From positions 279 to 64,278 of the forward strand of contig CADBLQ010000013.1 in NCBI GenBank assembly GCA_902795615.1: a DNA stretch of 64,000 bases, written 5' to 3'. The first letter of the stretch is position 1; each line of letters starts with the position of its first letter. Below, in pieces: positions 96 through 55,100 of this stretch. The translations under genes and the position numbers were made by a program. This stretch comes from an uncultured Pseudomonadota bacterium. GTDB lineage: Bacteria; Pseudomonadota; Alphaproteobacteria; RUG11792. The notes under the pieces are model-generated. The model ran no database searches and was not told the DNA's origin. It saw only the letters and a list, made by a program, of their open reading frames with translations.

Positions 96-971
96 TTATT
101 TATAATGAAAACAATTTACTACAATCAGTGATTTATCAGAATAGCTTTGAGGGTGTAGAAAGAAATCTTTTGCAGTATGCACATATTTGTAATTCTCTAC
201 TTTACAGAATTTAAAAATTTCATCCTCTAATGAATACCAATATGATATATTACCACTCACATAAATATCGTAATATAATTGATACAGTGTGCGGTATTTA
301 TTATAAATAAATGAAAGTATTCTACTTTTATAATCGTTACGCAAATTTAAATTTTCTAACCACACGAAATGACATTTGTCTTTAACCTTTTTAATAATTG
401 CGTTTACATCTGTTATTTTCGGAAAAATAGGCGCAATGAAACACGCAGTTTGTATTCCTGCATCATGACATGCTTTCATCGCAGTAATACGACGTTCAAT
501 ACTTACTGTACACTCCATACTTTTCCGGAAATCATCACACAACGTATTAATAGAAAACGCGACTAATGCTTTAGGAAACATTTTTATCAAATCTAAATCT
601 CTAAGTACTAAGTCGGATTTTGTACAAATAACTATTTTTATTTCATACTCAATTAACTGTTCTAATAAAGAGCGAGTACGACCATACTTAGCCTCACACG
701 GCTGATAAGCATCCGTTACTGTGCCGATAAATACTGTTTTTCCATAGTATTTAGTGGGCTTGCCTATTGCTTCCCAAGATTTTATATCAACAAATGAACC
801 CCATTGTTCTTGATGGTTTGAAATCTGAGCCATATAACTCGCATAGCAATACTTACATGCGTGTGTACAGCCTATATATGGGTTGGCACAATAATCAGTC
901 CCCGGCAAATTTGATTTGCATAAAATACTTTTTGTGTTGACACACTTTACATGCAATTTTGCAGTTTCCAT
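96..971 (-). CDS. radical SAM protein (SplB-like / COG1533-type)
   Basis: 291-aa ORF. It has an N-terminal CxxxCxxC iron-sulfur motif in NPYIGCTHACKYCYASYM. Size and motif position fit the SplB-like radical SAM family. Confidence 0.7.
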   Translation of the reverse strand: METAKLHVKCVNTKSILCKSNLPGTDYCANPYIGCTHACKYCYASYMAQISNHQEQWGSFVDIKSWEAIGKPTKYYGKTVFIGTVTDAYQPCEAKYGRTRSLLEQLIEYEIKIVICTKSDLVLRDLDLIKMFPKALVAFSINTLCDDFRKSMECTVSIERRITAMKACHDAGIQTACFIAPIFPKITDVNAIIKKVKDKCHFVWLENLNLRNDYKSRILSFIYNKYRTLYQLYYDIYVSGNISYWYSLEDEIFKFCKVENYKYVHTAKDFFLHPQSYSDKSLIVVNCFHYK

Positions 972-1968: not shown

Positions 1969-2209
1969 ATAATTACATTATCAATATTTTCATTCTTCAT
2001 TTTAGCATAGTTTTATATATCTTTGCTATGCGACATGTAGATATACCGGCAACCGAATAAAACATGAATATTTAAAGTTTAAAAGAACTGTCGTTCGCGG
2101 TATATCTTTTGTGAGTTTAACTAATTGTTAATTTTTTATTAACCGAAAATTAAATAAAACTTGATGTCATAAAGATGAGAGTTTTTGCCAAAAATTTTGG
2201 AGAAAAAGA

Positions 2210-3562
2210 ATGAGTAACTTATCAATGAAAAAAATGCTTTACCTTGCAACACTGTGTTTCTTTGTTGCAAACGTTAAGGCAATGGAAGATAAAAGTGAGG
2301 CATTAGTTGAATCATGTCTTCACAATCAAACACTAAGTGTTTTAGAAACAATTCCAGAAGAAAAAATTGATGATGACAATTTACAAGATGATGAAGAACC
2401 AATTGATGTTATCGATAATAAGATAAAAAGCGAAAAAAATTGGAAAACTTTAAAGGATAAAGGATTAGAAACAAAAAACGATGAAGTAAGTGAATACACA
2501 TCCAATATTAATGAATTCTTTGTTAAATACCCAAATCCACAATACTTAACAATTATGGAATGCGATGGGGTTACGCAATCAATATACTTGGCACAGTTAG
2601 AAAAAGCATTAGTTAACCTTTACTATGAAAAATATAAAAACCTTGGTTTAATCAATAATACTAATAAATGGGTAGGTATTTCATATGGTTGTACGTTAGC
2701 AGGTGCTAATGTTGGCACATTAACTAACAGTGAAGATATTGAACAATTTAATTTATCAATTGATGACATAATAACGCACTTAAAGCATGATCGTATTAAT
2801 CAAAACAACTGTTGCACAAAATTTACCAATTGCTTATTTAATTGTTGCCTTTGTTGTTTTAAATGCTGTGCAAAGAGTAGCGATATTGACATTATAAGAG
2901 AATCACAATTTGATCAAGCTACATCTTCAGCACTTCAACTTTATATTAAAAATTATTTCCCATATGAAGTATCAAGTCACTTGATTTTCTTACAAAGCGG
3001 GAAAGATCGTAGGCGAATTGACCCTGACTATCAGAGCAGTTATGTAGCAACGATAGAGGCTGTAAACAAAACTGCTAAAAAAAATAAGCGTAATGTCATA
3101 CGCAAAAATATTGGTTTTATAACAGATACAGTAGCCGACGTAGCTGATAAAACCGACGTACCTATTGTAGGGAACATAGCTAAAGTCACTGGTAAAGTAA
3201 TAACCGGTAATGTGGAATTTAAGAGCATTGATAATTCAAACAATGTTACTGCTTATCAGGAAATGTCAGGAGAAATATTAGATATAGGAACGTTTAAAAT
3301 CATTTTAAATATTGATAACGTTGATGCACCTGATTTATCTTGTGATTTTAGAATTGAGTATAAAAAAGAAGCGAAAAAATTAAAGTATAAACTAACGGTT
3401 AATATTCCTACTAAGGCATATTGTGATATGCAGCATAATTTTGAAGAAGGATATCAAAAAATATTGGATTATTTAAATGAAAAACGTGTAAAATATTATC
3501 TCGAACCGATGTTCAAGTTTATAAATGGCATGCGTTCTTTTGAAACTAAAAATAAACATTAA
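2210..3562 (+). CDS. hypothetical secreted protein with an internal cysteine-string motif
   Basis: 450-aa ORF preceded by a GGAG-like RBS. It has a Sec-type signal peptide (MKKMLYLATLCFFVANVKA). Residues 201-220 read CCTKFTNCLFNCCLCCFKCC. I recognise no known domain. Confidence 0.6.
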   Translation: MSNLSMKKMLYLATLCFFVANVKAMEDKSEALVESCLHNQTLSVLETIPEEKIDDDNLQDDEEPIDVIDNKIKSEKNWKTLKDKGLETKNDEVSEYTSNINEFFVKYPNPQYLTIMECDGVTQSIYLAQLEKALVNLYYEKYKNLGLINNTNKWVGISYGCTLAGANVGTLTNSEDIEQFNLSIDDIITHLKHDRINQNNCCTKFTNCLFNCCLCCFKCCAKSSDIDIIRESQFDQATSSALQLYIKNYFPYEVSSHLIFLQSGKDRRRIDPDYQSSYVATIEAVNKTAKKNKRNVIRKNIGFITDTVADVADKTDVPIVGNIAKVTGKVITGNVEFKSIDNSNNVTAYQEMSGEILDIGTFKIILNIDNVDAPDLSCDFRIEYKKEAKKLKYKLTVNIPTKAYCDMQHNFEEGYQKILDYLNEKRVKYYLEPMFKFINGMRSFETKNKH

Positions 3563-3588
3563 AAAAAGCCCTATTTATAGGGCTTTTC
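3561..3588. terminator. bidirectional rho-independent terminator between convergent genes
   Basis: An A7 run is followed by the stem GCCCTA, loop TTTA, stem TAGGGC, then TTTTC. It starts immediately after the stop codon of the 2210..3562 ORF. Read on the minus strand, it lies downstream of 3660..4004 with a T-run after the stem. Confidence 0.7.
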
Positions 3589-3659: not shown

Positions 3660-4004
3660 TTATGCTGCACGACTAACGCAATCGCCACATTTTTCACTAA
3701 TCTCTTCTAGTTTTTCTTTACTAGGTTCAGCAAAAAATTTACGATCATCATATTCTGATTTCTTCCCTACGTTATAATTGCTAGTTGGGCGATAATATCC
3801 CATCACACGAGACCAAATTTCACACTTTTGACGTTCTGCGTCATCAAGGTGGAATTCAGCACTCGCATCTTCGCATTGATGACCTTCTGCATTATTAACT
3901 TGACCACTTTGACAACTGCATTCACAGTTCTTTTGATTATTCATATCTGAGTACGCTGAGTTACCGTTATTTTTCATAGTTTCCTCACATAACATACGTT
4001 CCAC
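3660..4004 (-). CDS. small protein resembling the C-terminal glycyl-radical module of class III (anaerobic) ribonucleotide reductase NrdD
   Basis: The C-terminal segment EIWSRVMGYYRPTSNYNVGKKSEYDDRKFF fits the NrdD C-terminal pattern R-[VI]-x-G-Y-..-N-x-G-K-..-E-..-R. There is a Cys-rich N-terminal part (CECSC, HQC, QKC). Confidence 0.5.
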   Translation of the reverse strand: MERMLCEETMKNNGNSAYSDMNNQKNCECSCQSGQVNNAEGHQCEDASAEFHLDDAERQKCEIWSRVMGYYRPTSNYNVGKKSEYDDRKFFAEPSKEKLEEISEKCGDCVSRAA

Positions 4005-13782: not shown

Positions 13783-15087
13783 TCATTGTAAGTCCACAAT
13801 GCTATACCTACAATGGCTTTTACGACCTATATTTCTTAATTCTGAAATTGCCCATACTAAAGCGTCTACTCTATCAGGTGATTTTATGTCCTTATTGAAT
13901 TTTCCGAGTGGTTCAAATTCATCATCATAGGACATATTGAGCATTTGTTCTTCGAGCTTACTAAATTGCTTGCAATGAAATACTCTGTTCGTTTCATACA
14001 AGATTGAAATTGGCTCTGCACGTGCTACCTTGCCTTTTACAGCATGAACTTTACGTATAGGTAAATTACTATCAATACTTCTTAAGTTTTCAGTAACTAA
14101 ATCACCACCATTATTTGTTTCTACAACAACACAACTAGCATTATAGTCAACACTTGCTCGTACAACCACCTTTGCCCATTCAGTACCAGTATATTTACCA
14201 CTTAAATCATCAATTACATATATTTTCCGATCTAAACCTAGCCCCGCCACAATAATACCTGTTTCATCAGAATTATTCGTGCTAGTTACAGCAGGGTCTA
14301 CACCAATTACTACATGGTCTGTAAGATTTATATCTATTTTATTATAACGAATATTTTCCAATTTCCACAATGGACGCTCTTTTTCAAAAAGAAGTTCTCC
14401 ATAAAGTTCTTGTCGACCTACACGTGTATCTTTGTATGTATTTTCCATTGTTGTTATAAATCGTTTTGAGAGATTTAAAGCATTTTCAAAAGTAGAGCCT
14501 GTAGTGTAAACTGTGTCTTTATTGTCAGCAATGTTTTTCAAAATTTTTAACGGTCTAGGTGTAGTAGTAATTATACATTTTGGGTCATCTCCTATACGTA
14601 AACAAAACAAAACTTGTTCCCATAGTTCAGTTGCATGTTTGAATTTTGCAAACTCGTCTATCCATACAAGGTCAAATTGAAACCCTCTAAGTGTATCAGG
14701 TCTATTACCTCCAAACACATAAACGATTGCACCATCATCAAATGTTATTTTGTTCTTTGTTCGTTTGTAAGATAAATTGGAATATTGAAAAGCAGTACTG
14801 GAAAATAAACCACTCATACCTTCTATCATTATTTGCATTGCTTCCTTGATTGTTTCTCCAATTACAGCAACACTTTTATATTTACCCGATTGTATTAATG
14901 ACATTACGTTTTCAGCACCAGTACGAGTTTTACCAAATCCGCGTCCTGCTAATATTAACCAAGTGAACCAATCACCTTTTGGTAAAAGTTGCTTATTTCG
15001 CGGACACCATATACTTGAAGTTTGTATATTGGTATGTCGAGTGTTTAACTGATAAGTATTATGAAATAATGTATACTGCTTTTCCAT
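13783..15087 (-). CDS. phage/GTA-type terminase large subunit
   Basis: Walker A in WLILAGRGFGKTRTGAENV, as in alphaproteobacterial GTA TerL. Walker B-like LVWIDEFAK. The C-terminal nuclease part contains VVIGVDPA and VVETNNGGD. No portal or capsid genes are adjacent. Confidence 0.8.
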   Translation of the reverse strand: MEKQYTLFHNTYQLNTRHTNIQTSSIWCPRNKQLLPKGDWFTWLILAGRGFGKTRTGAENVMSLIQSGKYKSVAVIGETIKEAMQIMIEGMSGLFSSTAFQYSNLSYKRTKNKITFDDGAIVYVFGGNRPDTLRGFQFDLVWIDEFAKFKHATELWEQVLFCLRIGDDPKCIITTTPRPLKILKNIADNKDTVYTTGSTFENALNLSKRFITTMENTYKDTRVGRQELYGELLFEKERPLWKLENIRYNKIDINLTDHVVIGVDPAVTSTNNSDETGIIVAGLGLDRKIYVIDDLSGKYTGTEWAKVVVRASVDYNASCVVVETNNGGDLVTENLRSIDSNLPIRKVHAVKGKVARAEPISILYETNRVFHCKQFSKLEEQMLNMSYDDEFEPLGKFNKDIKSPDRVDALVWAISELRNIGRKSHCRYSIVDLQ

Positions 15088-15990: not shown

Positions 15991-16178
15991 AATCACGTGA
16001 TTAGAATCTATAAATACCACACATACCATAATAACAAAAAAACCAATGGCAAACGCAAAAGTCCTTGGTATTACACGTCAGTCATCAGCAAAAATGTCGT
16101 AATGATGCTAAAAAGATACACACGGTTAAGGATAGGTGCTATCATAACAATGACAAAGAGAAAAATATAAAAAATAAT

Positions 16179-17315
16179 ATGGGCAGTAAAGATTATTATG
16201 CAATACTAGGTGTGCCAAAGAACGCATCTTCAGATGATATTAAGAAATCGTATAGGAAATTAGTATTAAAATACCATCCCGATAAAAATCCAGGTGACAA
16301 AACTGCCGAGGAAAAGTTTAAAGAAATTAATGAGGCATATGAAGTCTTAAAAGATGACCAAAAACGGGCTGCGTACGATAGATACGGTTCTGATGCATTT
16401 AGTAATGGAAGCTCAAGTTCAAGTGGCGATAATCCTTTTGGTTTTGAAGGTTTTTCAGCTGGCAATTTCGGAGACTTTAGTGATATTTTTGAGCAAATGT
16501 TTGGAGATAGCATTTTCGGAACGCGTTCGAATTCTCGGCATCAACAGCCGGGAGCTGATATCCGATATGATGTTACAATAAACCTTCGTGAAGCATGCAC
16601 AGGCACTCATAAAACATTAAAATATACCACATTTGTACGTTGCGACTTGTGTTCTGGGCGGGGGTACGACAATAAATATACTCCCACCGCTTGTCCAAAC
16701 TGTGGAGGACGAGGAAGTGTTCGAACAAGAAATGGCTTCTTAACTATAGAACAAACCTGTCAACAATGCGGTGGACAAGGAAGTATAATATCCCATCCAT
16801 GTAGAAAGTGTTCCGGTTCAGGTCGGATTAAAGATGATAAACGGATTGATATAAGTATACCAGCTGGCATCGAAAGTGGAGGACAAATACGAATTCCTAA
16901 TGAAGGTGAGGCTGGATATATGGGGTCTCCTAATGGAAATTTATATGTGGTTGTTAATATACTGCCCCACGATGTATTTAAACTTGAAGGACACGATCTG
17001 AAATGCACTGTATATATTCCAATGACGACTGCAATTTTAGGTGGAAACATAAGTGTGACAGATATAGATGGAAATTCACACTCTATTAACATATCTCATG
17101 GTACGCAAACAGGAACACAAGTTAGGATAAAATCGGTGGGTATGCCGTACTATCAATCAAGTCGTCGAGGAGATATGCTAGTCGAGATTATAGTTGAAAC
17201 GCCAATTGATTTAACTTCTCAACAGAGAGGTATCATTGAAGATTTCCAACGTCAATGTACTACCAAAAATAATCCAAAGACTCAAGCAACTCAGGATAAG
17301 TTCAGTGTACTCTGA
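16179..17315 (+). CDS. dnaJ: molecular chaperone DnaJ
   Basis: J domain (DYYAILGV...HPDKN), a G/F-rich linker, and four CxxCxGxG repeats ([32 protein letters not shown]). The start is set at the ATG that gives [11 protein letters not shown]. Confidence 0.95.
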
Positions 17316-20905: not shown

Positions 20906-21176
20906 TAAATTTTATTTAACTATATTATGTGTTTGAATTATGGCAAGCCACAAAAGTGGAACACCTTATTTAAAATTAAAATTCGTAACAAACTTTGGAT
21001 AATGTAGGGATATATTCTAACTTTTTGACGCTACAAACTTTAGATTACAGAAACAGAGTTGTGTTTTAGATGAGAAGACTTACGGAAAAAGTTTTAATTT
21101 TCTTAAAATTTTGATTGTTTCTTTGCAAGAATGTTGAATAATAATGTTGCAAAGATTTACTAAAAAAGGAAATTAT

Positions 21177-23087
21177 ATGAACAAGTCAAAAATGTTTCTG
21201 ATGATGCTGACTATGGTAACCGTCCCAAGTGTACAAGCATCAGGAACAAATACGTTACTACTTCCGTTAAATCAAAATATGAGGCAATACCAGCAATTTA
21301 TGCCTTCACATCCGAACAATGCGAATCTTAAGGAATTTAATTCCTTTGCGGATCTAGATGGACATGATATGTTCTCAACAACCATAACTGGCATTTTTCA
21401 GGGAGAGAATATGGCTAATGCAGATAATAATTACCTAGGAGGAGGCAAAATCTATGACGAAGCACTAGACAAAGCAGTTGAAAACCAGTTTTTGGGGAAG
21501 AAAACGTCAGGCACTCAATACGGCCTCGAACAAGCGAATAACAATCTCAATGATGAATTTGAAGAAGAATCACAATATTCCGCTGATCATCTATTTATAC
21601 AAAAACAATCCAGAAATCGTGTGTCGTACGAAAAACAAGGTCTCGCTCTTAACGAAGATGACGAGAACGTAGTAGATGTAAATGACGCTCTAATAAACGA
21701 GAGTCCAAAAACAAACTTAAATATCGACAAGAAACGCATTTGGGACATTTGTAAAGTCCGTCAAAAATACCCAAAAACAAACTTAAATATCATCGGTAAT
21801 CGCATTGGTAAATTCAAACACAAAAAAGCATGGAAGCCTAAAATGACTTATGCTTTCTCCAAAAGTGACCTTGAATTGGAAGAAAATCAAATACAAGACC
21901 TAGAAAGCAAGATAGAATTTGAAAGTGTTAATTTGCCAATTGATGGATGTTTTTGGAAAAATCGTAATACTCAAATCATCAAAGAATTAGAAAACGGTGG
22001 TTTGTTAGAGTTTATAAGTAAAGTTGTAAACCAACTTAAACGTAATCAACAGGTTACTTTGTCTCATAGAGATCTGCATTATGTTGAAATTTCCACTTTA
22101 TATTCAGGCGGATACCATAATCCTCAAGTTATTACTACTAAGAAAACTTATAACACTAAAGAATCAGTGGCTAACGATCAATTAAGGAATCCACCTGAAT
22201 ACTATAAACTACGAAAAGAATGTCAGAAATTCGGTGGGATAAGAAAGTTCGGAGAAGACGTCCCTAAAGAAAAACTCAAGTATTTTGCTGATACTATTGA
22301 GTCTTTTCATAGGGATAGTCCAGCTCGTCGAGCTGGAGATATTTTTAGAAAAAAGATCCTCGAAAACCCCCTGATTGACTACAACCTTTCAAACCGACTA
22401 GATTATTTGACTACGTCGCTAAAATCAATAGCAAGATTGGTATCATTACATTACGAGATCTCACAGCCTACAACGTTTTTCCGGATAAATATCGCTTGGT
22501 TGAAAAAACTTGTCGGAATAAAAAAATCCAAAAGGCGATTCACTAGAGATACCTTTTATTTGAAGAAAGTTATAAAAAACTGGAAGATAGTAAAATCCAA
22601 AATGCAATTTGATGATGAGGATAAACAAAACCTTAAGTATAAGGTGTTCAAAATACATTGGGGGAATAATCACGATGCAGTCAGCCTATATATAAAAGAA
22701 TTAGTTAAGAAAATTATTGATGTCACGTGCGAGGGGTTTATTTCCAAACTAAATGACAGTTTAAGAGAATGCTTTACTGACCTTTTTTCTACAAATTTGC
22801 GTAGCAAAGACCTCGCATCAGCTAACTCAAATATAGAAACATTAGCTAATACTATAACAAACGCATTTTCTTTTGCGTGGAAATTAGAATCATTGAACGT
22901 CATACCCGCCTGTCTTGAATATACATCGGTTTTAGATTCAAAAAAGACAGGGCCAGTACAGAATCTTGGAGATTTTTTTAAACGTAGATTACAACCTGCA
23001 ATCGAAGCCACTCTGAAAGCACTTGTTACTGAATATAAAAATAAGATAAATCAAGAACAGCAGAAAGACTTAGTGACCGACAAATAG
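21177..23087 (+). CDS. hypothetical secreted protein, paralog A of a lineage-specific family
   Basis: An AAGGA RBS lies 7 nt upstream of the ATG at 21177. Signal peptide MNKSKMFLMMLTMVTVPSVQASG. It is colinear with the next gene over about 450 aa (NRIGKFKHK, GGLLEFI, VTLSHRDLHYVEISTLYSGGY, IARLVSLHYEISQPTTF, FKIHWGNN, LGDFFKRRLQPAIEA). Confidence 0.7.
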   Translation: MNKSKMFLMMLTMVTVPSVQASGTNTLLLPLNQNMRQYQQFMPSHPNNANLKEFNSFADLDGHDMFSTTITGIFQGENMANADNNYLGGGKIYDEALDKAVENQFLGKKTSGTQYGLEQANNNLNDEFEEESQYSADHLFIQKQSRNRVSYEKQGLALNEDDENVVDVNDALINESPKTNLNIDKKRIWDICKVRQKYPKTNLNIIGNRIGKFKHKKAWKPKMTYAFSKSDLELEENQIQDLESKIEFESVNLPIDGCFWKNRNTQIIKELENGGLLEFISKVVNQLKRNQQVTLSHRDLHYVEISTLYSGGYHNPQVITTKKTYNTKESVANDQLRNPPEYYKLRKECQKFGGIRKFGEDVPKEKLKYFADTIESFHRDSPARRAGDIFRKKILENPLIDYNLSNRLDYLTTSLKSIARLVSLHYEISQPTTFFRINIAWLKKLVGIKKSKRRFTRDTFYLKKVIKNWKIVKSKMQFDDEDKQNLKYKVFKIHWGNNHDAVSLYIKELVKKIIDVTCEGFISKLNDSLRECFTDLFSTNLRSKDLASANSNIETLANTITNAFSFAWKLESLNVIPACLEYTSVLDSKKTGPVQNLGDFFKRRLQPAIEATLKALVTEYKNKINQEQQKDLVTDK

Positions 23088-23177: not shown

Positions 23178-23436
23178 CATTATATTCTCCTAAAATAATT
23201 ATTTGTTTGTAGCTTTGACGTTGCATACGAAAGACTAATTATCAGATTGGGACAAATTCTGAACAAGGAGAAGAGCGATTATAATTTTTATGCGTCAGCA
23301 TGCAATTATATGTAGCTTAATAACAAATTATTTGTTTGAAACAAAAGAAAATTATCAATTTTTTAAATTTTGCTGGAATCGGATAACAGAATTTGCCATC
23401 ATGATGGCGTCAAAGGTTAAAGAACAGGGAAAAAAT

Positions 23437-24945
23437 ATGGTCAGAACAGGAAAAACACTTTTAACGATGTTAGCAATTTTTACAGTACAGAACGCAGAGG
23501 TAAATAGCATGCAAGATTTAATACCTAACAATCTTCTGTACAAAAACAAGAAGATCTGGCTTTCTGAAAACAGTGCGTTTCAGAGAAATGCTCCTCAAAA
23601 TGATAATGGAAACTCAGGAGTTCATAACTTGATTAATCTAACTGAAGAAAAACCAAAATTCGTAGTACACATGCAACAACCGGGGAAAAAACAATACGAA
23701 AATGCGTGGTATTTTGAAAACAAAGAACTTGTCACTGATAAGAATGATGAAAATCTACCAAAAAATTCGAAAAAGGTTAGTAATAGAATTGGTCGGTTTA
23801 AAAGTAAACATATAAAGATATATGGGTACAAATTTATTCTGAAGAAAAAATTTTCTAAGGAAATATGCGAAGCTCTAAAAAATAGCGATATTGGTGAAAA
23901 AAATGTTAAAATTCCAACTGGTGGACTTTTTTTGAAAAACACAAAACTGTGGAACGATAAAATAAGAAAATTAGAAAGAGCGGGACTAATAGAGTATTTG
24001 GAAAAAACCAAAGCCAAAATTACAGAAAATAAGAATATTACACTATCGCGAAAAGATATATTTCATCTTTTTACTTCTGTTTTATATACAGGAGAATATC
24101 CCCCTGCACGTACCAGAAGCGACACTAAAGATAAAAAAAAATGTGCGTTACGAAAAAAACGTGGTAATTTAAAAATAAGAAAATCCGATGGTTCTGTCGA
24201 TTTAAGGTTAATTGAAGATACTATTGCCTCTTTTTCCCAGTTTAGGGGGCATTTTTCAGACCTAATTGTGTCTGCAAACACTTTTCCACCAGATCAACTG
24301 CTTAGGGCAAATGCGAAAAGCGTATTAAATACGCTGACAGAGATAGCAAGATTAGCTGTATTATGTGAAGAAATATATCAAGAAACAACGTTTTCTCGTG
24401 AGACAATAATGTGGCACAAAAAAAAACATAATAGAAGGATACGGGGAATTAAGGATTCGAAATTTGAGGTGAAAAATACGTATTTAATATTTAAAGTAAA
24501 GTGGAATGAAAAAACCAATTATATAAGAAAAGCTATAAAAGAATTACTTGAAAAGGCAATTGACGAAAGTTGTAATACGTTTGTGAATAAGTTTCAAGAA
24601 GTGTTAACAACTTACTCAACAGAACTCATGAACAAAAATATAAATAACAAAAATGATAAATCAGAACTTTCTGAAGATGAAACAATTTTTTTAAATTCGT
24701 TGGATAAAATAAAAGAAAAATTTCAGGAAGCATGTACTAAAGGGGATTTAAAAAAAATATCTGTGAATATGACATTGCCGGCAAATAATGTAAATCCAAA
24801 CCCTATAGAAATTACTAGTCTTGCTGAATTATTTAAAAAGAAACTGAAACCTTTAATAGATGCATCTATGGATCAAATTGCTTCTAGTTATAAAAAAGAA
24901 TTAATTTCAGACAAGCAAACTGAAAATACTCAAAAATCTGAATAG
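23437..24945 (+). CDS. hypothetical secreted protein, paralog B of the same family
   Basis: An AGGGA RBS precedes the ATG at 23437. Signal peptide MVRTGKTLLTMLAIFTVQNAEV. Matching blocks are NRIGRFKSK, AGLIEYL, ITLSRKDIFHLFTSVLYTGEY, IARLAVLCEEIYQETTF, FKVKWNEK and LAELFKKKLKPLIDA. Confidence 0.7.
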   Translation: MVRTGKTLLTMLAIFTVQNAEVNSMQDLIPNNLLYKNKKIWLSENSAFQRNAPQNDNGNSGVHNLINLTEEKPKFVVHMQQPGKKQYENAWYFENKELVTDKNDENLPKNSKKVSNRIGRFKSKHIKIYGYKFILKKKFSKEICEALKNSDIGEKNVKIPTGGLFLKNTKLWNDKIRKLERAGLIEYLEKTKAKITENKNITLSRKDIFHLFTSVLYTGEYPPARTRSDTKDKKKCALRKKRGNLKIRKSDGSVDLRLIEDTIASFSQFRGHFSDLIVSANTFPPDQLLRANAKSVLNTLTEIARLAVLCEEIYQETTFSRETIMWHKKKHNRRIRGIKDSKFEVKNTYLIFKVKWNEKTNYIRKAIKELLEKAIDESCNTFVNKFQEVLTTYSTELMNKNINNKNDKSELSEDETIFLNSLDKIKEKFQEACTKGDLKKISVNMTLPANNVNPNPIEITSLAELFKKKLKPLIDASMDQIASSYKKELISDKQTENTQKSE

Positions 24946-26095: not shown

Positions 26096-29000
26096 TTAGA
26101 ATTTCCAATTGAGGTTAAATTGCCCACCAAAACCAGTTCTGCCAAGATGACGGAACGTTGCTTGAATTGTCGCAGTAAGGTTTTTTGTCGAGACAAAGTT
26201 TAGACCCAATCCATACTGCATGTAACCTTTTTTCTTCATTTTTAATTTTGGTAATTCAACATTTCCAGCTTTACCAGTACCACTTCTATCTAGATTAAGT
26301 ACATATTTTGCAGAAATACAGATACTCGTTTGTTTTCCAGAGAATATTAAATCTATACCAGGCAATATGCTAATACCATTTAGCTTTTCAGAAACCATGT
26401 CCATACTTCCATATGTAGTTTTCCATTTTCCTCCATTGATATAGTTGTATGTCGCCGACACGTTCGGTTGAATAATTACATTCTGAGAGACATTGATGTT
26501 GTAACCAGCTCTCAATGAACCGCCAAATAATCCATGGTTAATTTTTTCTTTTTCTCCATTGCTATCCTTGTTATTGTTATCTTCACTATTGTTATTACTT
26601 TCAGTTTCTCCCATTTTGGGCAAAGTTATTTTATTTCGATAGTATCCTCCGTACACCATTGCTCCTAGCGTGAAATTGCAATTTGAGAAGGCTCCTGCAA
26701 ATCCTAATTCGCCACCATCCTGGCGAGATTTGAATTTGTGTTCAGTGTCTTTAATTTCATACTTTTGATGAGACCCCAGATATCCGGCAAATATGCTAGG
26801 AGTAAAATTCCAGCAATTAGATAATAGTTTAGTACCAAAGTCAATTCCGAATAATGCACCATAAGAGGTATTTTTTATATCAGGTAGTTCGCTTGTATTT
26901 TCATTATTGTTATTATTATTATTTGTATTTTCGTTATTTTTACTACTATCCCCGGTATTTAGATGCAAATTTTCATGACCACCAAATAATTTAACCCATA
27001 CACTATTGTTCTTATTAGGATTTTTTCCTTTAATGTAATCCGATGATTTAGCTTGGTTATTAGCCAGAATGTGTCCAAAAACACCATCATTCAATGATGC
27101 CTGATTTTGATTTAACGCTGTCATTCCAATTTGATCTCTAAATACACCAGGATTGAATTTTGTTAATTCTAGATTATAAATTCCATTACCAGCCGGTTTT
27201 AAAGCGTAATAACCAATAGCTGTTAATTTTTCAGTGCCACTAGATGTAAACGTAATACAATTTGAGCTTGCAACATTAAATATTTTCATAGGTATACTTT
27301 CATCTATTGGAGCATCGTCACCAAATAGGTTTCCATTTAATGCAAAATCTTTAATATTTACTGTGGCACTATTTCCATTTGTTGGCTCCATAACTGTAGT
27401 GCCATCACTCTTTCCGAATTTGTCATAGTTAGCATTTTCCTTGCTTCTACCATAGACATCGATGGAAAAATCAGCTTGAGTTACGTCATCTTTACCTATT
27501 TGAATTTTATTTGATAGCCCGTGTTCTTCATATAAACCATTAATTGAATTAATTTCCCCACTAAACGTTGAAAGTTCTTTAGATATTTCACTATCTCCAA
27601 ATATAACCTTACCGCCGTTTTCAAGTGTTGGGTCACCAAATAAACACGATGAATCATCAAAAGTTGCAGTACAACTTGTAATTATGAGTTGCCCACCATA
27701 TTGTTTATAGTACGGCAATGTGACGCTAGAATTTCCAAGGGTAGGAGTTGCACCAAAATGCATATCAACTTTGATTTGAACTATTCCAGCGTATTGGTAA
27801 ATATCTCCTTTAAGCCTATTTTTATCTTGCTCTTCAATTATTAATTTTCCTCCGTTTACATCTTTTGCTATTTCTTCTTTAAAACTGCCAGTGATTTCTT
27901 CATGATTACCATTTACAATTTTTATTGCACAACCAGCAGGTAGGTCTATATCACCAATTTGCCCACTAGTAAAATAAATAGTTGCGGGGTTTCCGTTACT
28001 GCCAATAGTAACTAACCCTTTTATTTGTTGTTCGTTAACTGATAATATACCACCGTTTTTTTCAAGTTTTATATTACTATTAATAGGTTCATTTTGCTCT
28101 GTAAGTATACAATTACTATTCTCTTTATTAAAAATAAGTTCATCTTTTTCATTGTCTAAAAGTTTTTTTTGAACCAAATTTCCTAATGTAGATGTATTTG
28201 CTTCGCCATTTTTTAGCTTTGTATCTACTGTTCCCATTTTTTTTTCACCTGTAACAGGGTCTTTATCAGGAACAACTCCTGCACTAGTTGGATTTTTTAA
28301 TTTTACGTTTCCAGCACTTTTTATTTCTCCTTTATGACCTTCTCCCTCAACCAATATATTTACTTTTTCCCCAATGATTGTGGTCTTTGTACCTATCTTA
28401 TGGTCATCATCACATTTTATTTTTCCTTCAGCACCTCTTGTATTAAGTTTGTTATTATTCTCTTCCTTCCCTTCTTCCTGCTCTTCATTTTCTCCCATGT
28501 TATTTTGCACGTTTGTGTCAATTAATTCATCATCAATGTATTGGTAATCATCATTATTTTCGTCTTCCTCTGGGTTAGAATTTTCTTCTTCTTCTTCGCC
28601 ACCTTCTTCCAATTTTGATTTATTTGATAGTAGGTTTTTTTTAACTCCTGCCTCTTCACTTTCATTTGGAATTAATACTTTACTGAGGTCACCAACAAGA
28701 GTTAACGTACCATTCTTTAGATTAATAGTTCCTTTAAGACTATTGTTTTCATTATCGAGGTTAATTGCTACTTCACTCTCATTACCTTTGATGTCTAATT
28801 TTGCATTTTCCTTTAGGTTTAACGTTGCTGTTTTTTCAATTGTTGCGTTATCAACTAGAACAATTTTATTTTCATTTGTTCCATCACCAATAACTATATT
28901 GCCTTTTTCGACTTTACTGTCTTTATTTAGAGTGAATGTCGTTGCTTTAGGAGCAGATGGGTCGTCTTTCAACTTTTTATTTGTTTTTTTAAGCAAAGCC

Positions 29001-30868
29001 TTATTTTTGACACCGTCACCACTTGGTGTGGTCTGTGCCTTACTAATTCCTTCTACGATAAGTTCAAATTCCCCATTATCCTTATTAGGAACAAGCAATG
29101 TAGCATCATTATCATCTCCATTTGATATTGTTACTTGCGTATTTCCAGCAGCGACTTCTTTCGGTGCAATTGTTTTGCCAACAGATTTAGCTGCATTAAG
29201 ACGACGAACAGGTGCTGTTAACATAGTAAGAGTATTAACTTTAAGACTGAGTTGTTTATCTTGTGCTGTAGTTTTTAACAAATTTGGTGTTACTTCTTCT
29301 TCTACATCAATTGCGTCATGCACTAGGCTGGCACCTGTTATTTTGCTACCAGAATTGAGGGTTAGGATTGAATCTGTTAAATATGTAGTTCCACCATCTT
29401 GGTTATAAGTGCGCGTATCATCTGTTTCAATTAATATACTTCTTCCTATAAACCGCCCTCCGCTAACTTGCATTGCACTTTCAATACTATCTTCACTTTC
29501 CTTACCAGAATTTGGATCAACGACATCATTTAGGTGGAAAGTACCATTGTTTATGGTTATTGGAGCATTAATTTTTGATGTACAATCACCAGCAACAAAA
29601 TCTTTTTCATTATTCATCACAAATCCAGGTTCGCCTTCATTTTCACTTTCCATAACATTAAGACCGCCCTTTGTTACTGTTACATAGTTATTTTCATTAG
29701 TTGCAAAACCGTGCGAAATCAATTCACCTCCCGTAACTGAAATTTCACCGGTAACAGTGTCACTACTACCTAATACAACAGAAGAGCCTTCTCCAAAGGT
29801 AACGCCTTCTTTAGCGATTATTTTTACATCTTTTGAAATTTTGTCTTCTTCATTCAGCACTACGTGATTATCGAAAATTAATGTACCACCTGTTGCTATT
29901 AATTCTCCTCCTTTATTAGAGACTAATTTACCATTCTCATCAGTTCTTGATCCTTGTGCTTCAGAAGCACTTTCATCAACAATGTTCCGTAGTGTTAATT
30001 CTCCTCCCTTTAGATAGATATCACCAACCCAATTTACTTTATCTAACTTTTCACCTCCATCAAGAACAACCTTACCACTATTAATTTCCAATATACCGCC
30101 TGTCCAACTGTCTTCAATTGGCTTACCATCAGCACCCTTTTCAAGATATTGATCGTTTAATAAGTTAAATGTCGCACCATTTTCTCCCGCATTGAGATTT
30201 GCTGCTCGCTCAGGAGGTAACTCAGTAGGGTCAACTAGCGTACCATCAGATTTTTTATCGCAGTCAACTACTAATTTTCCATTTGTGTTGTTTGATTGTT
30301 CCTCATCATCAGTATAACCAACATTAACTGTTCCAGTGTTAATGTAGTTGCCTTGTTTTAATGTTAGCGTTGCATCATCCAATATGTTTATAGTTGCTTC
30401 CGATGCATTTAAGTCTCCAGTACTTTGTTGATTAAAACTTCTAATTTTTCCGCCTGCATAATAATAATCAGCGTAATTATTGACGCGACCTACAAATCCT
30501 GCATATTGCTCTACTGATCCAGACAGATTTTCAAGACTGGCAACATTCTCAACTTCATTATCATCAACTTTAACTGTCTGAGTGTTTTCATCAAGTACTA
30601 CACTACTGTTTATTGGCTTCTTATCAATTAACTCCGTTTGAGAACCATTAATAAGTGCTGTTCCCTGTCCGCCGTCTCCACCACCAAGCCTAGCGTTGCC
30701 AGTTAGACTTACCGCACCATAATTTCTTTTTATGACTGAGTTTGAGAAATCTTGTGACAAGTTTAAAGTAGCCCCTATATCTATATTAAATATATGTGTT
30801 GCCATTACACCCGGTGATGTAGTTGCCATCATGCAAATTACTGATGTAAGTAAAAAACGTTGTTTCAT
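26096..30868 (-). CDS. large autotransporter (type Va) surface protein
   Basis: Signal peptide MKQRFLLTSVICMMATTSPGVMA. The roughly 1250-aa passenger has recurring GG-x-[LIV] motifs. The C-terminal beta-barrel has alternating hydrophobic strands and ends ...GFGGQFNLNWKF, with the terminal Phe typical of outer-membrane proteins. Confidence 0.85.
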   Translation of the reverse strand: MKQRFLLTSVICMMATTSPGVMATHIFNIDIGATLNLSQDFSNSVIKRNYGAVSLTGNARLGGGDGGQGTALINGSQTELIDKKPINSSVVLDENTQTVKVDDNEVENVASLENLSGSVEQYAGFVGRVNNYADYYYAGGKIRSFNQQSTGDLNASEATINILDDATLTLKQGNYINTGTVNVGYTDDEEQSNNTNGKLVVDCDKKSDGTLVDPTELPPERAANLNAGENGATFNLLNDQYLEKGADGKPIEDSWTGGILEINSGKVVLDGGEKLDKVNWVGDIYLKGGELTLRNIVDESASEAQGSRTDENGKLVSNKGGELIATGGTLIFDNHVVLNEEDKISKDVKIIAKEGVTFGEGSSVVLGSSDTVTGEISVTGGELISHGFATNENNYVTVTKGGLNVMESENEGEPGFVMNNEKDFVAGDCTSKINAPITINNGTFHLNDVVDPNSGKESEDSIESAMQVSGGRFIGRSILIETDDTRTYNQDGGTTYLTDSILTLNSGSKITGASLVHDAIDVEEEVTPNLLKTTAQDKQLSLKVNTLTMLTAPVRRLNAAKSVGKTIAPKEVAAGNTQVTISNGDDNDATLLVPNKDNGEFELIVEGISKAQTTPSGDGVKNKALLKKTNKKLKDDPSAPKATTFTLNKDSKVEKGNIVIGDGTNENKIVLVDNATIEKTATLNLKENAKLDIKGNESEVAINLDNENNSLKGTINLKNGTLTLVGDLSKVLIPNESEEAGVKKNLLSNKSKLEEGGEEEEENSNPEEDENNDDYQYIDDELIDTNVQNNMGENEEQEEGKEENNNKLNTRGAEGKIKCDDDHKIGTKTTIIGEKVNILVEGEGHKGEIKSAGNVKLKNPTSAGVVPDKDPVTGEKKMGTVDTKLKNGEANTSTLGNLVQKKLLDNEKDELIFNKENSNCILTEQNEPINSNIKLEKNGGILSVNEQQIKGLVTIGSNGNPATIYFTSGQIGDIDLPAGCAIKIVNGNHEEITGSFKEEIAKDVNGGKLIIEEQDKNRLKGDIYQYAGIVQIKVDMHFGATPTLGNSSVTLPYYKQYGGQLIITSCTATFDDSSCLFGDPTLENGGKVIFGDSEISKELSTFSGEINSINGLYEEHGLSNKIQIGKDDVTQADFSIDVYGRSKENANYDKFGKSDGTTVMEPTNGNSATVNIKDFALNGNLFGDDAPIDESIPMKIFNVASSNCITFTSSGTEKLTAIGYYALKPAGNGIYNLELTKFNPGVFRDQIGMTALNQNQASLNDGVFGHILANNQAKSSDYIKGKNPNKNNSVWVKLFGGHENLHLNTGDSSKNNENTNNNNNNNENTSELPDIKNTSYGALFGIDFGTKLLSNCWNFTPSIFAGYLGSHQKYEIKDTEHKFKSRQDGGELGFAGAFSNCNFTLGAMVYGGYYRNKITLPKMGETESNNNSEDNNNKDSNGEKEKINHGLFGGSLRAGYNINVSQNVIIQPNVSATYNYINGGKWKTTYGSMDMVSEKLNGISILPGIDLIFSGKQTSICISAKYVLNLDRSGTGKAGNVELPKLKMKKKGYMQYGLGLNFVSTKNLTATIQATFRHLGRTGFGGQFNLNWKF

Positions 30869-31234: not shown

Positions 31235-31882
31235 ATGATATACGAATTAAATGTACAAACAAGAGACGCTAAAGGGTCTCGACAATCACGTAAACTACGT
31301 CACAATGGGTTAGTTCCAGGAATTATCTATGGTGCAAAAAAAGAACCAACAATGATAGCAATCTCGGCAAAGGAAATTAGTAAGGAATATAATAACTCGT
31401 TATTCTTTAATAAAGTGTGGTCATTAGTCACAAATGGGAAAGAAACCGAAAAAGTTTTGCCCAAATCGGTATCTTGCCACCCTGTAACAGGGAAAATATT
31501 ACATGTTGACTTTATGCGTGTGTCTAAAGATAAGAAAGTCAAAATTATGATTCCTGTTGAGACAATCAATGAGGATAAGTCTCCTGGTATCAAAAAAGGA
31601 GGCATCATTAACCTGGTTGTACATAGACTTGAATGTCTGTGCGTTCCTGATGCGATACCCGAAAAAATAGTATTAGATTTGTCAGGTAAAGAGATTGGCG
31701 ATAGTTTTTTACTCGAACAAATCGAATTACCTAAGGGGGTTGAGGCTATAAATGCTATACGTGATAGTGTTTTGGCAACTATTGTCGTTTCTAAAGTTGG
31801 TAAGGAAGAAGACAAAGCTCAGGCTACTACAACAACTGCAGAAACAGCACCTACTGAGGGTACAGCTACAAAAGCCGAATAG
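31235..31882 (+). CDS. rplY: 50S ribosomal protein L25 / general stress protein Ctc
   Basis: RQSRKLRHNGLVPGIIYG and HVDFMRV are present. The Thr/Ala-rich C-terminal tail is typical of long-form Ctc. Confidence 0.9.
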   Translation: MIYELNVQTRDAKGSRQSRKLRHNGLVPGIIYGAKKEPTMIAISAKEISKEYNNSLFFNKVWSLVTNGKETEKVLPKSVSCHPVTGKILHVDFMRVSKDKKVKIMIPVETINEDKSPGIKKGGIINLVVHRLECLCVPDAIPEKIVLDLSGKEIGDSFLLEQIELPKGVEAINAIRDSVLATIVVSKVGKEEDKAQATTTTAETAPTEGTATKAE

Positions 31883-31897
31883 TTGTGATTATTCGTT

Positions 31898-42757: not shown

Positions 42758-43873
42758 ATGCCATTTTATAAATGTAAAGTTATTAGCTCGACATATGAAA
42801 TCTATAAAAAGGTGCTATATGCACGATCGGAAAATGAACTTCTGCAAAGAAACCAGGATATTATTAACTATAGACAGTACAATCCCAAAATAAATTTTCG
42901 AGAATTTTCACTACAGTTATTTAGAATAATGCAGCGTTTAACAGCTAATAGTTATAATACTGTTCAGGCTCTAACAGTTGCCGAAAATTGCTTTAGTGGT
43001 GTACAAAAATCAATAATCCAAACTATTTTATATGATATACGGCACGGAACTACATTTTCAGAAGCTTTAAAGCAGTTCTCACAGTGTTTTGACTTAACAA
43101 TTATTGAAATTTTAAGAGTATCGGAACTAACAGGTAGATTAACAGAATCAATTGAAAATATAATTAAATATATTGAATATAATAATCAATTTAATACTAA
43201 AATTAAAAATGCAACACGTTATCCAATTTTTGTTTTAATATTAATCTTCGTTATTTCAGTTATTTGGATTGTATGGATTATTCCGCAATTTGGACAGATT
43301 TTTACGGATTTAGAATTACCTACTCCTACAATAACAAGTTGGATGTTAAGCCTGGGTAGTGCTATAAGAAAGCATTATGTGATAGCAATGACTGTTACCC
43401 CGATAATTTTTGTTGCGTATAGACACCTGCATTTTAAAATACCTATAATTTCAAAATTTACTGATGAAATTAATAAATTACAGTTTTTTGATACAATGGC
43501 GTTAATGTTGCGTGAAAAAATTCATTTAATAGATGCAATAAAATGTGTTACAAGACGTAAAGAATTTGAAAAATACTCAGAATTAGTAGAATTAATTATT
43601 CATGGATATAGTTTTTCATATGCAGCGGAAAAACTAGAGATTTTTTCAAATGAAGAAATTGCTATTATGTCCGTTAGTGAACAAACTGGACAATACTGGG
43701 TTGCGTTTAACACATTTGCTGATATGATGAAACTGCGTATAGATAACAACTTAAACTTAATAACTAAGCGACTACCATCTATACTTATATGTGTAGTTGG
43801 TATAATACTAGTTATATTTATATACGGCACATTTATGCCATTATATTCCAGTATCGACCTTGTAACTAATTAG
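42758..43873 (+). CDS. type II secretion / type IV pilus platform protein (GspF/PilC family)
   Basis: Two T2SS-F repeats: FSLQLFRIMQRLTANSYNTVQAL...I..GTTFSEAL...SELTGRL...YPIFVLILIFV...IIPQF..IF..LELPTPT, and a second repeat ending MPLYSSID. 371 aa. Confidence 0.7.
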   Translation: MPFYKCKVISSTYEIYKKVLYARSENELLQRNQDIINYRQYNPKINFREFSLQLFRIMQRLTANSYNTVQALTVAENCFSGVQKSIIQTILYDIRHGTTFSEALKQFSQCFDLTIIEILRVSELTGRLTESIENIIKYIEYNNQFNTKIKNATRYPIFVLILIFVISVIWIVWIIPQFGQIFTDLELPTPTITSWMLSLGSAIRKHYVIAMTVTPIIFVAYRHLHFKIPIISKFTDEINKLQFFDTMALMLREKIHLIDAIKCVTRRKEFEKYSELVELIIHGYSFSYAAEKLEIFSNEEIAIMSVSEQTGQYWVAFNTFADMMKLRIDNNLNLITKRLPSILICVVGIILVIFIYGTFMPLYSSIDLVTN

Positions 43874-52122: not shown

Positions 52123-55100
52123 TTATTTAAGAACGGAAGGTTCGTAGTGTACGACTAAAATTCTGCGTTTAGGTTCTAATAATTCCTTTGCTGTATTCAT
52201 GAAATCATCGAAAGTAATTGTATCTACAATATCAATGACGTTTTTAATTTCGTTTATAGAATGATTAAAAATCATAATATTCGTAATCAACATCCAATTC
52301 ATAGCATCTGGATTATCAAACATCTGTTCATATTTATTTTTAAAACTCTTTTTAAGTTTTTCAAATCTTTCATTAATAGTCTTCTCAGTTGGTGATGTCA
52401 TTTTTATGAAATTATCAATTGTCTTTTCAATTTTGCTCTCCAGTTCGTCAAACCGCGCATCTATTCCGTTTACATCAAGTTCAATATTCAAAAATGCGAA
52501 ATCATATGAAAACTTTTGTATATAACTTCTTACACTGTGTGCTAGTTCAAATTGGTTACAAATCTTATCGCGGATAATAGAACTATCACTTCCAAATAGC
52601 ATTTCATTTACCATTTCAATTACTATTTCCTGTTTTATAGTGGCTATATTTTTTCGTGGAATTTTATAAAACAATCCTAGGCGTTTTTGTTTAATTTGAG
52701 GATTTCTATAGGTTACTATTCTGCTAATATCAATGTCTTCTGGGTCGACAACCCTATTACGTTTTATACCTTTACCTCGTTTGATATGTCCAAAATTACG
52801 TTGACATAGTTCCTTAGCTTTGTTTATGTCAATATCACCGACAAAAATTGCTACTGCATTGTCCGGAGTGTAATGTGTTTCATAATGTTTTTTCAGATTT
52901 TCAAAATTACAAGCTGTTATCTGGTCTGGGTAGCCGATTACACTATTTGAGTAATTAGAATAAAGATATATATCTTTTAATAATGCTTCGTCTATGTATC
53001 TAATATATGGGTCAGAACCTTCTCGCATTTCACGTTCTGCTAATATCACATTTGTTTCAGCTTTTACCGTTTCATCTAGGAATTTAGCATTATGCATTCT
53101 TTCTGATTCTAGTCTTAAATCCGCATCTAAAAATGCCTTATTGCAATGTTGTGTATAGAATGTAATATCTTCGCAGGTAAATGCGTTGGTGTAGTTATTA
53201 AATGTAGTTAGATAATGATCCATTTTACCTGCAGGTATATTTTTACTTTCTTTAAAAGCCATATGCTCTAGGAAATGAGAAGCTCCAACTATATCTCGCG
53301 GATCATCTGCACTTCCTACGTAATATCCAATTCCAAAAAATACTGCATCTTTGCTACATGGCATATTACAAACAACAATTCTTAATCCATTTTCCAAATA
53401 CGCCTCTTCTATAGGGAATTCTGTGTTTGATTTTTTTTCAGGAGTACCAGTAGTAGTTCTCGATTTCTCATTTTTGTTCTTCTCATCTTTAGCATTGTTT
53501 GTTTCAGGTACAGTAGATTTCAATTGTGCTATATCCGCTGGCTCGGCATTTGCCGTTACATCATCAACTGTCCTATTGTGAGCCTGCGCCTTATCTACTT
53601 GTGGTACAGTTTTTCCGGCACTTACGATGACCATTTTTTCAACGTCAAATACCTTTTTTAGCACCTTATTCACATCAGCTACGGTAAGTTTCGCATATTT
53701 ATCTAGATAATCATCAACGGTGGCTACTGTAGCACCATCTGCTCTTCGTGCTAGTACATACGACATTATGGCACTTGGAGAATGAAGGACGTGAGAGGCA
53801 ACTATACCTATTCTATCAGATAAAAACTCGTCTTCGGTAATACCCTTTTCTGCTAACTCTTCACAGCTCTTTTTGACACCATCTATTACTGCTTTTATAT
53901 ACTGAGGATTGGTTTTTGCGACAATTGACAATCCACTTTGTAAGTCACGATCATGAAGTTTACTCCATATCGCATAAACTAAGTGTTGCTTTTCACGAAT
54001 ATCAACAAATAGTCTACATGATAATCCAATGTTACCCCAAATCCTATTTGCAGTTCTGATTGCGTATTTATCTTCATCCGTTATTGCTACACCTGGCAAT
54101 GCACACACAACTGTAGCATTTTCATTTTCAACTTCACAATGTTCATACTTAGAAGGAGACATTAATTCAGTACGTTGTTCACCTCCCTTAAAATTGTTAT
54201 GTCTATCTTTGATTGCTTCGTATACTTTATTTAATCCAGTTGTAATCTTTTCCTCAGATACATTACCTACCACAGTTATTTCAGCATTACGAGCATCAAA
54301 TAAAGTTTTATAGCAATTTTCCACATCATCTCGTTTGTATGTAGGAATCATTTTCAACCCTTCATCAAATGAAAACGCGTATTCTTTAACTTCGACCAGT
54401 CGTGACATTTTTTCAGATGCTACTTTAAGTGGAGTAACTTTTGATTGGTGAAGGTTGTCAATTAATTCAGCTTTAGTCCTTTCAATACTACTTTCAGGTA
54501 ATAAAGATTGCATCATTAATTCACATGCTAATGATAATGCCAAATCATACTGGTCTCTTAAACAAGAGAATGACATAATAACATTATCTGAATCGAAATC
54601 TAAGCTCAGTTCTATCGCTTGTTCCTTGAGTGTTCGTTTAAAGCCACCGACTCCCCACATACCAACATTTTCAGCAACACAACCACACATCAAGGTCAAT
54701 AAGTATGGCTTATCCCTAAAGCTCCTTGCTCCCTCGTTTCTGAATTTTATATTGACACTAACAGTTGTACCCTCAGTTTTCACAAACCACGCTGGTTTGT
54801 CGAATTTTGTCTTAATTTCCTTAACATCAAGTTTTTTACATTGAGATAAATCAATCTTTTTTAGCTCGTCAAACTTGAAATCTTCTGGTGTAAATCTGTT
54901 AGATTTTCCGGCATTGGTTACTAAATTCATAACTTTTTCCTTTCCTTTTTCAATGCTTTTAACTATTTTTGTACCTGCCTCCTGCAAGGAAGATTTTAAT
55001 TCTTTAACACCTTGTTTAACCATTTCCTTCCTTTTCACAGTACGATTCTTTACAGGTTCAGTTGTTTGTTCGGCATACAAGAGCGTACTTTGACAGATAC

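Follow-up and report, generated by a model that had tools for sequence, protein, structure and literature searches.

The DNA analysed here, hereafter the window, is a stretch of 64,000 nucleotides from an uncultured Pseudomonadota bacterium (GTDB lineage Alphaproteobacteria; RUG11792; contig CADBLQ010000013.1). It is densely coding, has a GC content of 31-35% and shows no tRNA, rRNA or Rfam match over its 64 kb. Close to its beginning lies the gene of a 450-aa orphan protein that carries a signal peptide and, near the middle of its chain, a 20-residue segment containing nine cysteines (Table 1). A preliminary description of this DNA had placed the segment at these same residues, with the same sequence, had compared it to the cysteine strings of eukaryotic proteins and had proposed that the protein is an effector palmitoylated by a host. 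We find that the motif is real and clearly non-random, that it is maintained by selection, and that it arose by cysteine gain within a small protein family from rumen bacteria. Acylation by a eukaryotic host is a plausible interpretation of the sequence, to be weighed against three other explanations.

Table 1. Features of the orphan-protein gene and of its product, in window coordinates (ORF, open reading frame; SPase I, signal peptidase I; pLDDT, predicted local distance difference test; P0015, the most distant homologue).
Feature	Coordinates	Strand	Remarks
Ribosome-binding site GGAG	2199..2202	+	7 nt before the ATG; direct reading
Orphan-protein ORF, 450 aa	2210..3562	+	Coordinates include the stop codon; from the ORF list
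Predicted Sec (SPase I) signal peptide, residues 1-24, MSNLSMKKMLYLATLCFFVANVKA	2210..2281	+	Read from the sequence
Acidic variable linker, residues 25-90	2282..2479	+	Gap-rich, poorly aligned; pLDDT 24-30, predicted disordered
Conserved N-terminal core part, residues ~91-199	2480..2806	+	AlphaFold2 strand-helix-strand, pLDDT mostly 58-93
E117-C118-D119-G120	2558-2569	+	Family-invariant, including P0015
G156-I-S158-Y-G160	2675-2689	+	Family-invariant, including P0015; after a predicted strand
Cysteine string, residues 201-220, 9 Cys, CCTKFTNCLFNCCLCCFKCC	2810..2869	+	Codon count
S232-Q-F-D235, shortly downstream of the string	2903..2914	+	Invariant in 10/10 sequences
Conserved C-terminal core part, residues ~360-442, three long beta-strands and helices	3287..3535	+	AlphaFold2 pLDDT 72-93
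Stem-loop, 11 bp, 4 GC pairs, A/T runs on either side	3563..3588	.	Terminator scan and direct reading

The cysteines of the string occupy positions 201, 202, 208, 212, 213, 215, 216, 219 and 220. They are encoded by nine TGT or TGC codons, one fewer than the ten cysteines counted in the preliminary description, whose observation of a dense string otherwise holds. The protein has 15 cysteines in total, one of them in the signal peptide, and the rest of the chain is cysteine-poor, as had been stated: outside the string there are 6 cysteines in 430 residues (1.4%), versus 1.8% in the long ORFs of the window. At a cysteine frequency of 0.018, the chance of finding at least nine cysteines among 20 residues is 2.7e-11 per position, or about 6e-7 across all long-ORF positions of the window. 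No second cysteine string was found in the real ORFs of the window, nor in those of the related loci outside the family. A 53-codon, stop-to-stop frame at ~31730-31888 (-), antisense to the ribosomal protein L25 gene rplY, packs 7 cysteines into 20 residues (CSCTLSRCCFCSCC) and can almost certainly be dismissed as spurious, a non-coding by-product of the codons on the sense strand. For the string itself, a simple-sequence or frame artefact can be rejected, as its reading frame, the synonymous swaps among its cysteine codons and its conserved flanks are those of a translated and selected motif.

The family to which the protein belongs is small, with about ten sequences. A word-indexed search of 5.8 billion proteins returned 7 clusters, and an exhaustive hidden Markov model (HMM) search of 1.84 billion representatives returned 4, in which the new sequences were two fragments and P0015, the only new full-length relative (419 aa, E 1e-28, 23-28% identity). 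A scan of GTDB genomes detected the family in two metagenome-assembled genomes (MAGs) from the rumen, RUG14152 and RUG12940, and a scan of JGI metagenomes found no members. The motif was also sought in relatives, as had been suggested. All nine string cysteines are kept in three homologues, namely P0002 (84% identity), L008 (~66-68%) and L009 (62%). At L008 and L009, the two string-clade loci for which DNA is available, TGT and TGC have been exchanged at 6 of the 9 cysteine codons and no cysteine has been replaced, a pattern that indicates purifying selection on the cysteine residues themselves.

More distant relatives have fewer cysteines in the same segment: 3-4 in the tandem paralogues of loci L001 and L002 (WYSGFTNCLFNSCIGCAKLD and similar), 4 in P0005 (RCFTIMNCLFNSCVSCVKLK) and only 2 in P0015, whose segment is aromatic-rich (FSDMCFSWMFYCFKYI). 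With 2-4 cysteines in these relatives versus nine in the string clade, the nine-cysteine state is derived and results from cysteine gain, at the expense of W, Y, S, G, L and D/N residues. Part of the pattern is shared more widely: C208, C213 and C216, in a CX4CX2C arrangement, are invariant in all rumen-clade paralogues, C118 and C216 are invariant throughout the family, and F210, like C216, is identical in 10/10 sequences. Family members diverge rapidly, showing ~45% identity between two genomes that share ~70% identity in AlaRS and ~74% in TGT. Two RUG MAGs carry tandem copies (L001, 9668-12668; L002, 9785-12617) that are ~41-44% identical to each other, and the window and L008 carry a single copy at the same syntenic position. 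One member, P0015, encoded at 109-1368 of L010, has no signal peptide: its gene begins with a TTG start just after an in-frame stop, on a 1.7-kb contig of higher GC and low coverage. The core domain thus also exists outside a Sec context and does not depend on the periplasm.

The signal peptide of the 450-aa protein, already recognized in the preliminary description, was read by eye from its n-, h- and c-regions and its V-x-A site, after which the chain continues with MED. Every close homologue has an equivalent hydrophobic N-terminal leader. The lipobox consensus [LVI][ASTVI][GAS]C is absent from the protein, where the sequence A-T-L-C16 lies in the middle of the h-region and has Leu at position -1. 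Two homologues, P0005 and L002a, do carry an ILGC lipobox, so the mode of anchoring may differ within the family. The lack of any recognisable domain, noted from the start, was borne out by searches of Pfam, NCBIfam, PADLOC and PHROGs with the protein and its family members. A sequence-profile search of the PDB gave only a meaningless match at E=3.3 to a Cys-rich zinc finger, and two Foldseek searches against the PDB gave no fold match (best E 0.47 and 0.35).

AlphaFold2 models had a pLDDT of 45.7 at full length (7 sequences), and a pLDDT of 55 with a predicted template modelling score (pTM) of 0.58 for a trimmed core (8 sequences). In the trimmed model, residues ~100-199 and ~360-442 form a fairly confident core, a beta-sheet with helices, in which pLDDT dips near the GISYG loop of the N-terminal part; the middle third, residues 199-359 including the string, has a pLDDT below 50. 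The invariant GISYG follows a predicted strand in 10/10 sequences, in the manner of a Gly-x-Ser-x-Gly nucleophile elbow, and together with ECDG 36 residues upstream it prompted a reading of the core as a patatin or alpha/beta-hydrolase. This reading is unsupported and is retained as a weak lead only. No His is invariant in the family, and a complete catalytic set (Ser-Asp-His, or Ser-Asp plus a Gly-rich oxyanion loop) was not recognised; an hhalign comparison with the E. coli patatin-like protein RssA gave a probability of 0.07; DUF676 matched 1 of the 10 family members at E 0.074, far below threshold; and the Foldseek matches included no hydrolase.

The string can be written as three imperfect heptads, CCTKFTN / CLFNCCL / CCFKCC(A), in which positions a, b, e and f are cysteines (replaced by L209, F205 and T206 in three slots), position d is K, N and K, and position g is N or L. 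In helical projection, the nine cysteines fall on one face together with F205 and L209, and K204, N207, N211 and K218 form a stripe on the opposite face. The hydrophobic moment is 1.3, versus 0.64-1.08 in homologues with fewer cysteines, and the mean Kyte-Doolittle hydropathy of the string is 1.1. With its K/N stripe, the string matches the hydrophobic or basic, membrane-proximal cysteine context of host-S-acylated effectors. A transmembrane role for the string was considered and rejected, as the highest 19-residue Kyte-Doolittle mean is 1.08; no transmembrane-grade segment occurs anywhere after the signal peptide. Nine segments were scored on the Wimley-White interfacial scale. Regardless of cysteine count, the sums of eight of them lie between -2.5 and -5.3 kcal/mol, and only P0005, at -0.7, falls outside this range; the nine-cysteine version scores -3.6 kcal/mol, and so does a three-cysteine version. 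The added cysteines thus leave interfacial hydrophobicity unchanged, which argues for selection for thiol chemistry. From these sequence properties we read that the family keeps a membrane-interface-like segment, and that some thiol chemistry was the target of the cysteine gain.

The position of the gene is syntenic and conserved: downstream of it follow a small NrdD-like ORF, a GlmU-like gene, tgt, a gene for a pseudouridine synthase and alaS. Its neighbourhood contains no metal-homeostasis genes. The stem-loop that follows it is a probable bidirectional terminator, shared with the convergent NrdD-like ORF at 3660-4004 (-). The match of this 114-aa ORF to the anaerobic ribonucleotide reductase NrdD (PF13597) is limited to the final ~35 positions of the enzyme, and its glycyl-radical motif SRVMGYY comes after a Cys-rich N-terminal part. 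The ORF keeps its position in L001, L002, L003 and L008, and in the window it has a radical-SAM gene in its vicinity, at 96-971 (-). Its product may be either a glycyl-radical 'spare part' protein that stands alone or one piece of a split NrdD.

The contigs of the relatives come from rumen metagenomes, including the set of Stewart et al., and belong to MAGs with small genomes labelled 'uncultured proteobacterium'. The Stewart et al. set includes 67 small (<1.5 Mb) 'Proteobacteria' genomes, and RUG12940 and RUG14152 form a long-branch clade in its tree (PMC6785717). Syntenic locus L002 encodes MipZ, and the window has a stand-alone rpsD beside a short, 504-aa MetRS. The window also contains a lone T4-type large terminase gene (Terminase_6N and 6C) at 13783-15087 (-), around which no other phage genes are recognisable and which may be a gene-transfer-agent or prophage remnant. 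These features (MipZ, the stand-alone rpsD with the short MetRS, and the lone terminase) point to Alphaproteobacteria, on what we take to be their usual distribution.

The window and ~130 kb of related loci encode a lone T2SSF-family gene, an autotransporter, transporters and several orphan proteins with signal peptides. In the window, the autotransporter (1590 aa) is encoded at 26096-30868 (-) and the T2SSF-family gene at 42758-43873. Directly downstream of the latter, an 826-aa orphan ORF at 43960-46440 (+) has a clear signal peptide, 16 cysteines and no Pfam match. Two further adjacent orphans, at 21144-23087 (+; 647 aa) and 23290-24945 (+; 551 aa), have signal-peptide-like N-termini and no Pfam match, and their C-terminal ends are visibly alike (DFFKRRLQPAIEATL / ELFKKKLKPLIDASM). 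The two appear to be secreted proteins that are peculiar to the lineage and arranged in tandem. A second tandem pair consists of unusually long insulinase-like proteins: in both of the adjacent ~1000-aa ORFs at 49112-52009 (-) and 52123-55134 (-), an M16 peptidase domain is accompanied by an M16_C domain that is inactive.

Among the functions that would account for a thiol-rich, membrane-interface-like segment, we tentatively favour multiple S-acylation by a eukaryotic host. The string would possibly be a membrane-binding amphipathic helix that is acylated after secretion, working like the string of cysteine string protein (CSP) and not descended from it. The protein is a Sec-exported product confined to one small clade of rumen alphaproteobacteria, all of them uncultured, and its central segment would be an amphipathic helix that binds the membrane interface. 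In the sub-clade that includes the window, the hydrophobic face of this helix would have been turned stepwise into a thiol-rich face, from 2-4 to 9 cysteines. The protein would leave the bacterium and reach the cytosolic face of a eukaryotic membrane, presumably that of a rumen protist, where the intrinsic hydrophobicity of the string would provide transient membrane contact. Host DHHC acyltransferases would then fix the string at the membrane, as they do for CSP and SNAP-25. A more specific version of this scenario must be considered doubtful: that the bacterium is a symbiont in or on a rumen protist, that the protein is released into the host cytoplasm, and that up to nine cysteines of a single helix are S-acylated there, locking a putative catalytic core, with the invariant ECDG, GxSYG and SQFD motifs, onto a host membrane.

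The closest known parallel is CSP-alpha (DNAJC5), whose string has 14 cysteines in 24 residues and whose hydrophobicity gives membrane contact first, with DHHC enzymes acting next (PMC3481330). The bacterial string also sets a dense run of cysteines amid F, L, N and K (9 in 20 residues, versus 14 in 24), and its hydrophobic character could similarly give a first membrane contact ahead of acylation. Its cysteine doublets, lying among F and L and flanked by K, resemble the acylated context of CSP-alpha. The words CCLCC and FNCC are also found in the human CSP string. The description of the segment as a eukaryote-like cysteine string is therefore apt for composition and hydrophobic context, but it does not extend to homology. 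CSP is cytosolic, whereas the present string is internal to an unrelated 450-aa bacterial protein with a Sec signal peptide. CSPs have ~12-15 cysteines within ~24 residues of a cytosolic protein free of a signal peptide; here there are nine in 20, and the signal peptide is present. Pfam DnaJ finds no J domain in the protein or in the 10 family members, and the same library does detect the DnaJ gene of the window (16065-17312). No homology to eukaryotic CSPs emerged from either the word-indexed or the exhaustive HMM search, whose 7 and 4 clusters contained only bacterial-metagenome relatives. At most, the sequences suggest a convergence in composition.

A second parallel is offered by bacterial effectors that are brought to host membranes by the acyltransferases of the host (PMC5780409). 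Salmonella SspH2, SseI and SifA, Legionella GobX and LpdA, and members of the Shigella IpaH group are S-palmitoylated in this way, all in proven intracellular pathogens. Such effectors have one to three acylated cysteines, mostly near a terminus, and we know of none with a Sec signal, whereas the 450-aa protein combines a Sec leader with nine internal cysteines. Its sequence shows no similarity to SspH2, SseI, GobX, LpdA or SifA. The C-terminus of SifA reads CLCCFL, and the word CLCCF is present inside the string. A third case lies outside bacteria: the N-terminal Cys-rich domain of the hepatitis E virus ORF3 protein associates with membranes through host palmitoylation (PMC6307819). Like the string, it is a hydrophobic cysteine cluster in a non-eukaryotic protein; unlike the string, it is made in the host cytosol, where access to DHHC enzymes is given; the bacterial protein would first have to gain such access. 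By analogy, then, the 450-aa protein may work like the CSP and SNAP-25 strings and the host-lipidated effectors, and it is a member of neither group.

Host acylation is favoured by the selection on the cysteines, by their directional gain at unchanged interfacial hydrophobicity, by their one-sided arrangement and by the Cys/F/L/K composition of the string. It gains some further ground from the evolution of the family. Its fast divergence, its tandem duplication in two genomes and its restriction to about ten sequences would fit the way effectors evolve. The segment of P0015, being Cys-poor and aromatic-rich, has the look of a stretch lying at a membrane interface and not that of a metal site, and the absence of a signal peptide from this same L010 protein is counted on the same side. 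So are the long branches of the related MAGs and the enrichment of Rickettsiales and undefined rumen Alphaproteobacteria in protozoa-associated fractions (PMC6217230).

Several observations weigh against acylation by a host. A classical Sec signal peptide routes the protein to the periplasm, and contact with a eukaryotic host is unproven. Nine cysteines exceed the one to three that are acylated in documented host-palmitoylated effectors. The pLDDT below 50 in the string region means that helicity is not established, the invariant CX4CX2C would suit a metal or redox site of ancestral origin as well, and the stable synteny with housekeeping genes resembles that of an envelope component more than that of a mobile effector. 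The known host-palmitoylated effectors (SspH2, SseI, GobX, LpdA and SifA) are described as injected by type III or type IV secretion systems (PMC5780409). In the window and the ~130 kb of related loci, we saw no type III or type IV secretion system, no ATP/ADP translocase and no eukaryote-like domain, and more generally no onward secretion system or marker of intracellular life. Furthermore, small-genome MAGs of Rs-D84 and RF32, two orders of rumen alphaproteobacteria to which the lineage of the window may or may not belong, were recovered from the small free-cell fraction of rumen fluid (PMC8992543). The preliminary description had spoken of an intracellular bacterium. This was an assumption, given that the sequence available revealed neither a type III or IV system nor any domain of eukaryotic type; the literature on lifestyle points both ways, and the relatives are small-genome rumen MAGs.

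Nearly as likely as host acylation, if itself somewhat doubtful, is a periplasmic cluster of thiolates with a metal or redox function. Reduced cysteines, possibly from several subunits arranged helix to helix, would bind soft metal ions (Cu(I), Zn, Cd or Fe) or else buffer thiol/redox state or sulfide, with the protein staying in the periplasm or envelope of an anaerobic rumen bacterium. Such a cluster would resemble copper storage proteins, with their Cys-lined helices, or clusters of the metallothionein type. All close family members have a Sec signal peptide, and C208, C213 and C216 in rumen-clade paralogues, with C118 and C216 family-wide, provide invariant thiols. The heptads align the cysteines along a single face of the helix, an arrangement known from Cys-lined helical bundles, the syntenic position among housekeeping genes is stable, and the rumen is anoxic, so that periplasmic thiols could stay reduced. 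High local cysteine density with Cys-Cys doublets is a further trait shared with metallothioneins and with the copper storage proteins Csp1 and Csp3, in which cysteines are arrayed along helices and of which Csp1 is exported.

The string nevertheless departs from these proteins in being rich in aromatic and aliphatic residues and in being a single 20-residue segment of a 450-aa protein. It contains 3 Phe and 2 Leu in 20 residues and no His, and aromatic residues are classically avoided by metallothioneins. The Cys-poor homologues keep the hydrophobic segment and not a ligand set; in P0015, two cysteines in an aromatic-rich segment are too few for a metal site. Searches of Pfam, NCBIfam and the PDB gave no match to a metallothionein, a copper storage protein or any other metal-binding family, and the neighbourhood is also devoid of metal-homeostasis genes. 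One variant falls altogether, that of a pre-assembled Fe-S cluster, as Sec exports an unfolded chain.

An explanation without any special thiol chemistry seems unlikely. An envelope protein would simply contain a hydrophobic helix, buried or embedded in the membrane, in which cysteines have replaced small or hydrophobic residues in an AT-rich lineage and brought no new function. The segment is indeed hydrophobic in all homologues whatever their cysteine count, the genome is AT-rich (GC 32-35%) and favours T-rich codons, and the flanks of the string are also highly conserved, so the string could belong to a packed core. However, the gain of six or seven cysteines within 20 residues, versus a cysteine content of 1.4% elsewhere in the protein, is unlike drift. 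All nine are fixed in 4/4 string-clade proteins, the most divergent of which have 62-68% identity, and the loci with DNA sequence show that their codons have turned over synonymously. The exchange of W and Y for Cys brings no gain in interfacial hydrophobicity, and nine free thiols per helix would be a liability unless used.

Least likely is a disulfide cross-linking module, in which the exported cysteines would form intermolecular bonds that polymerise the protein or tie it to envelope proteins, stiffening the envelope or a resting or infectious cell form by analogy with Chlamydia OmcA and OmcB: export by a signal peptide, many closely spaced thiols that are unlikely all to pair within one molecule, the self-association of CSP through its string (PMC3481330) and the even cysteine number of the mature 450-aa-ORF protein (15, with one in the signal peptide) are outweighed by the strongly reducing rumen, the odd number in mature L009 (14, with one in the leader), the strain and rarity of vicinal Cys-Cys disulfides, the lack of similarity to chlamydial cysteine-rich proteins, which spread their cysteines along the chain and not in one hydrophobic 20-mer, and the absence of Dsb genes from the sequence available, a fraction of the genome.

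At present the string may best be regarded as a well-documented sequence curiosity in an orphan protein, of interest under more than one of these explanations. If it is acylated by a host, lipidation mimicry would extend from the one to three cysteines of injected effectors in model pathogens to a full CSP-like string, and also to a Sec-dependent protein and to an uncultured rumen lineage. That lineage would be flagged as protist-associated, which is of relevance to intracellular symbiosis in rumen ciliates, a subject about which little is known. If true, this would make the protein the first multi-cysteine 'string' effector, and would be evidence that a long-branch rumen lineage lives as a protist symbiont. 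If the function is instead a periplasmic metal or redox one, an anaerobe would here possess a thiolate cluster of an unusual, hydrophobic type. In both cases the family provides a natural series of 2, 3, 4 and 9 cysteines in one and the same segment, in which the evolution of a cysteine cluster can be followed.

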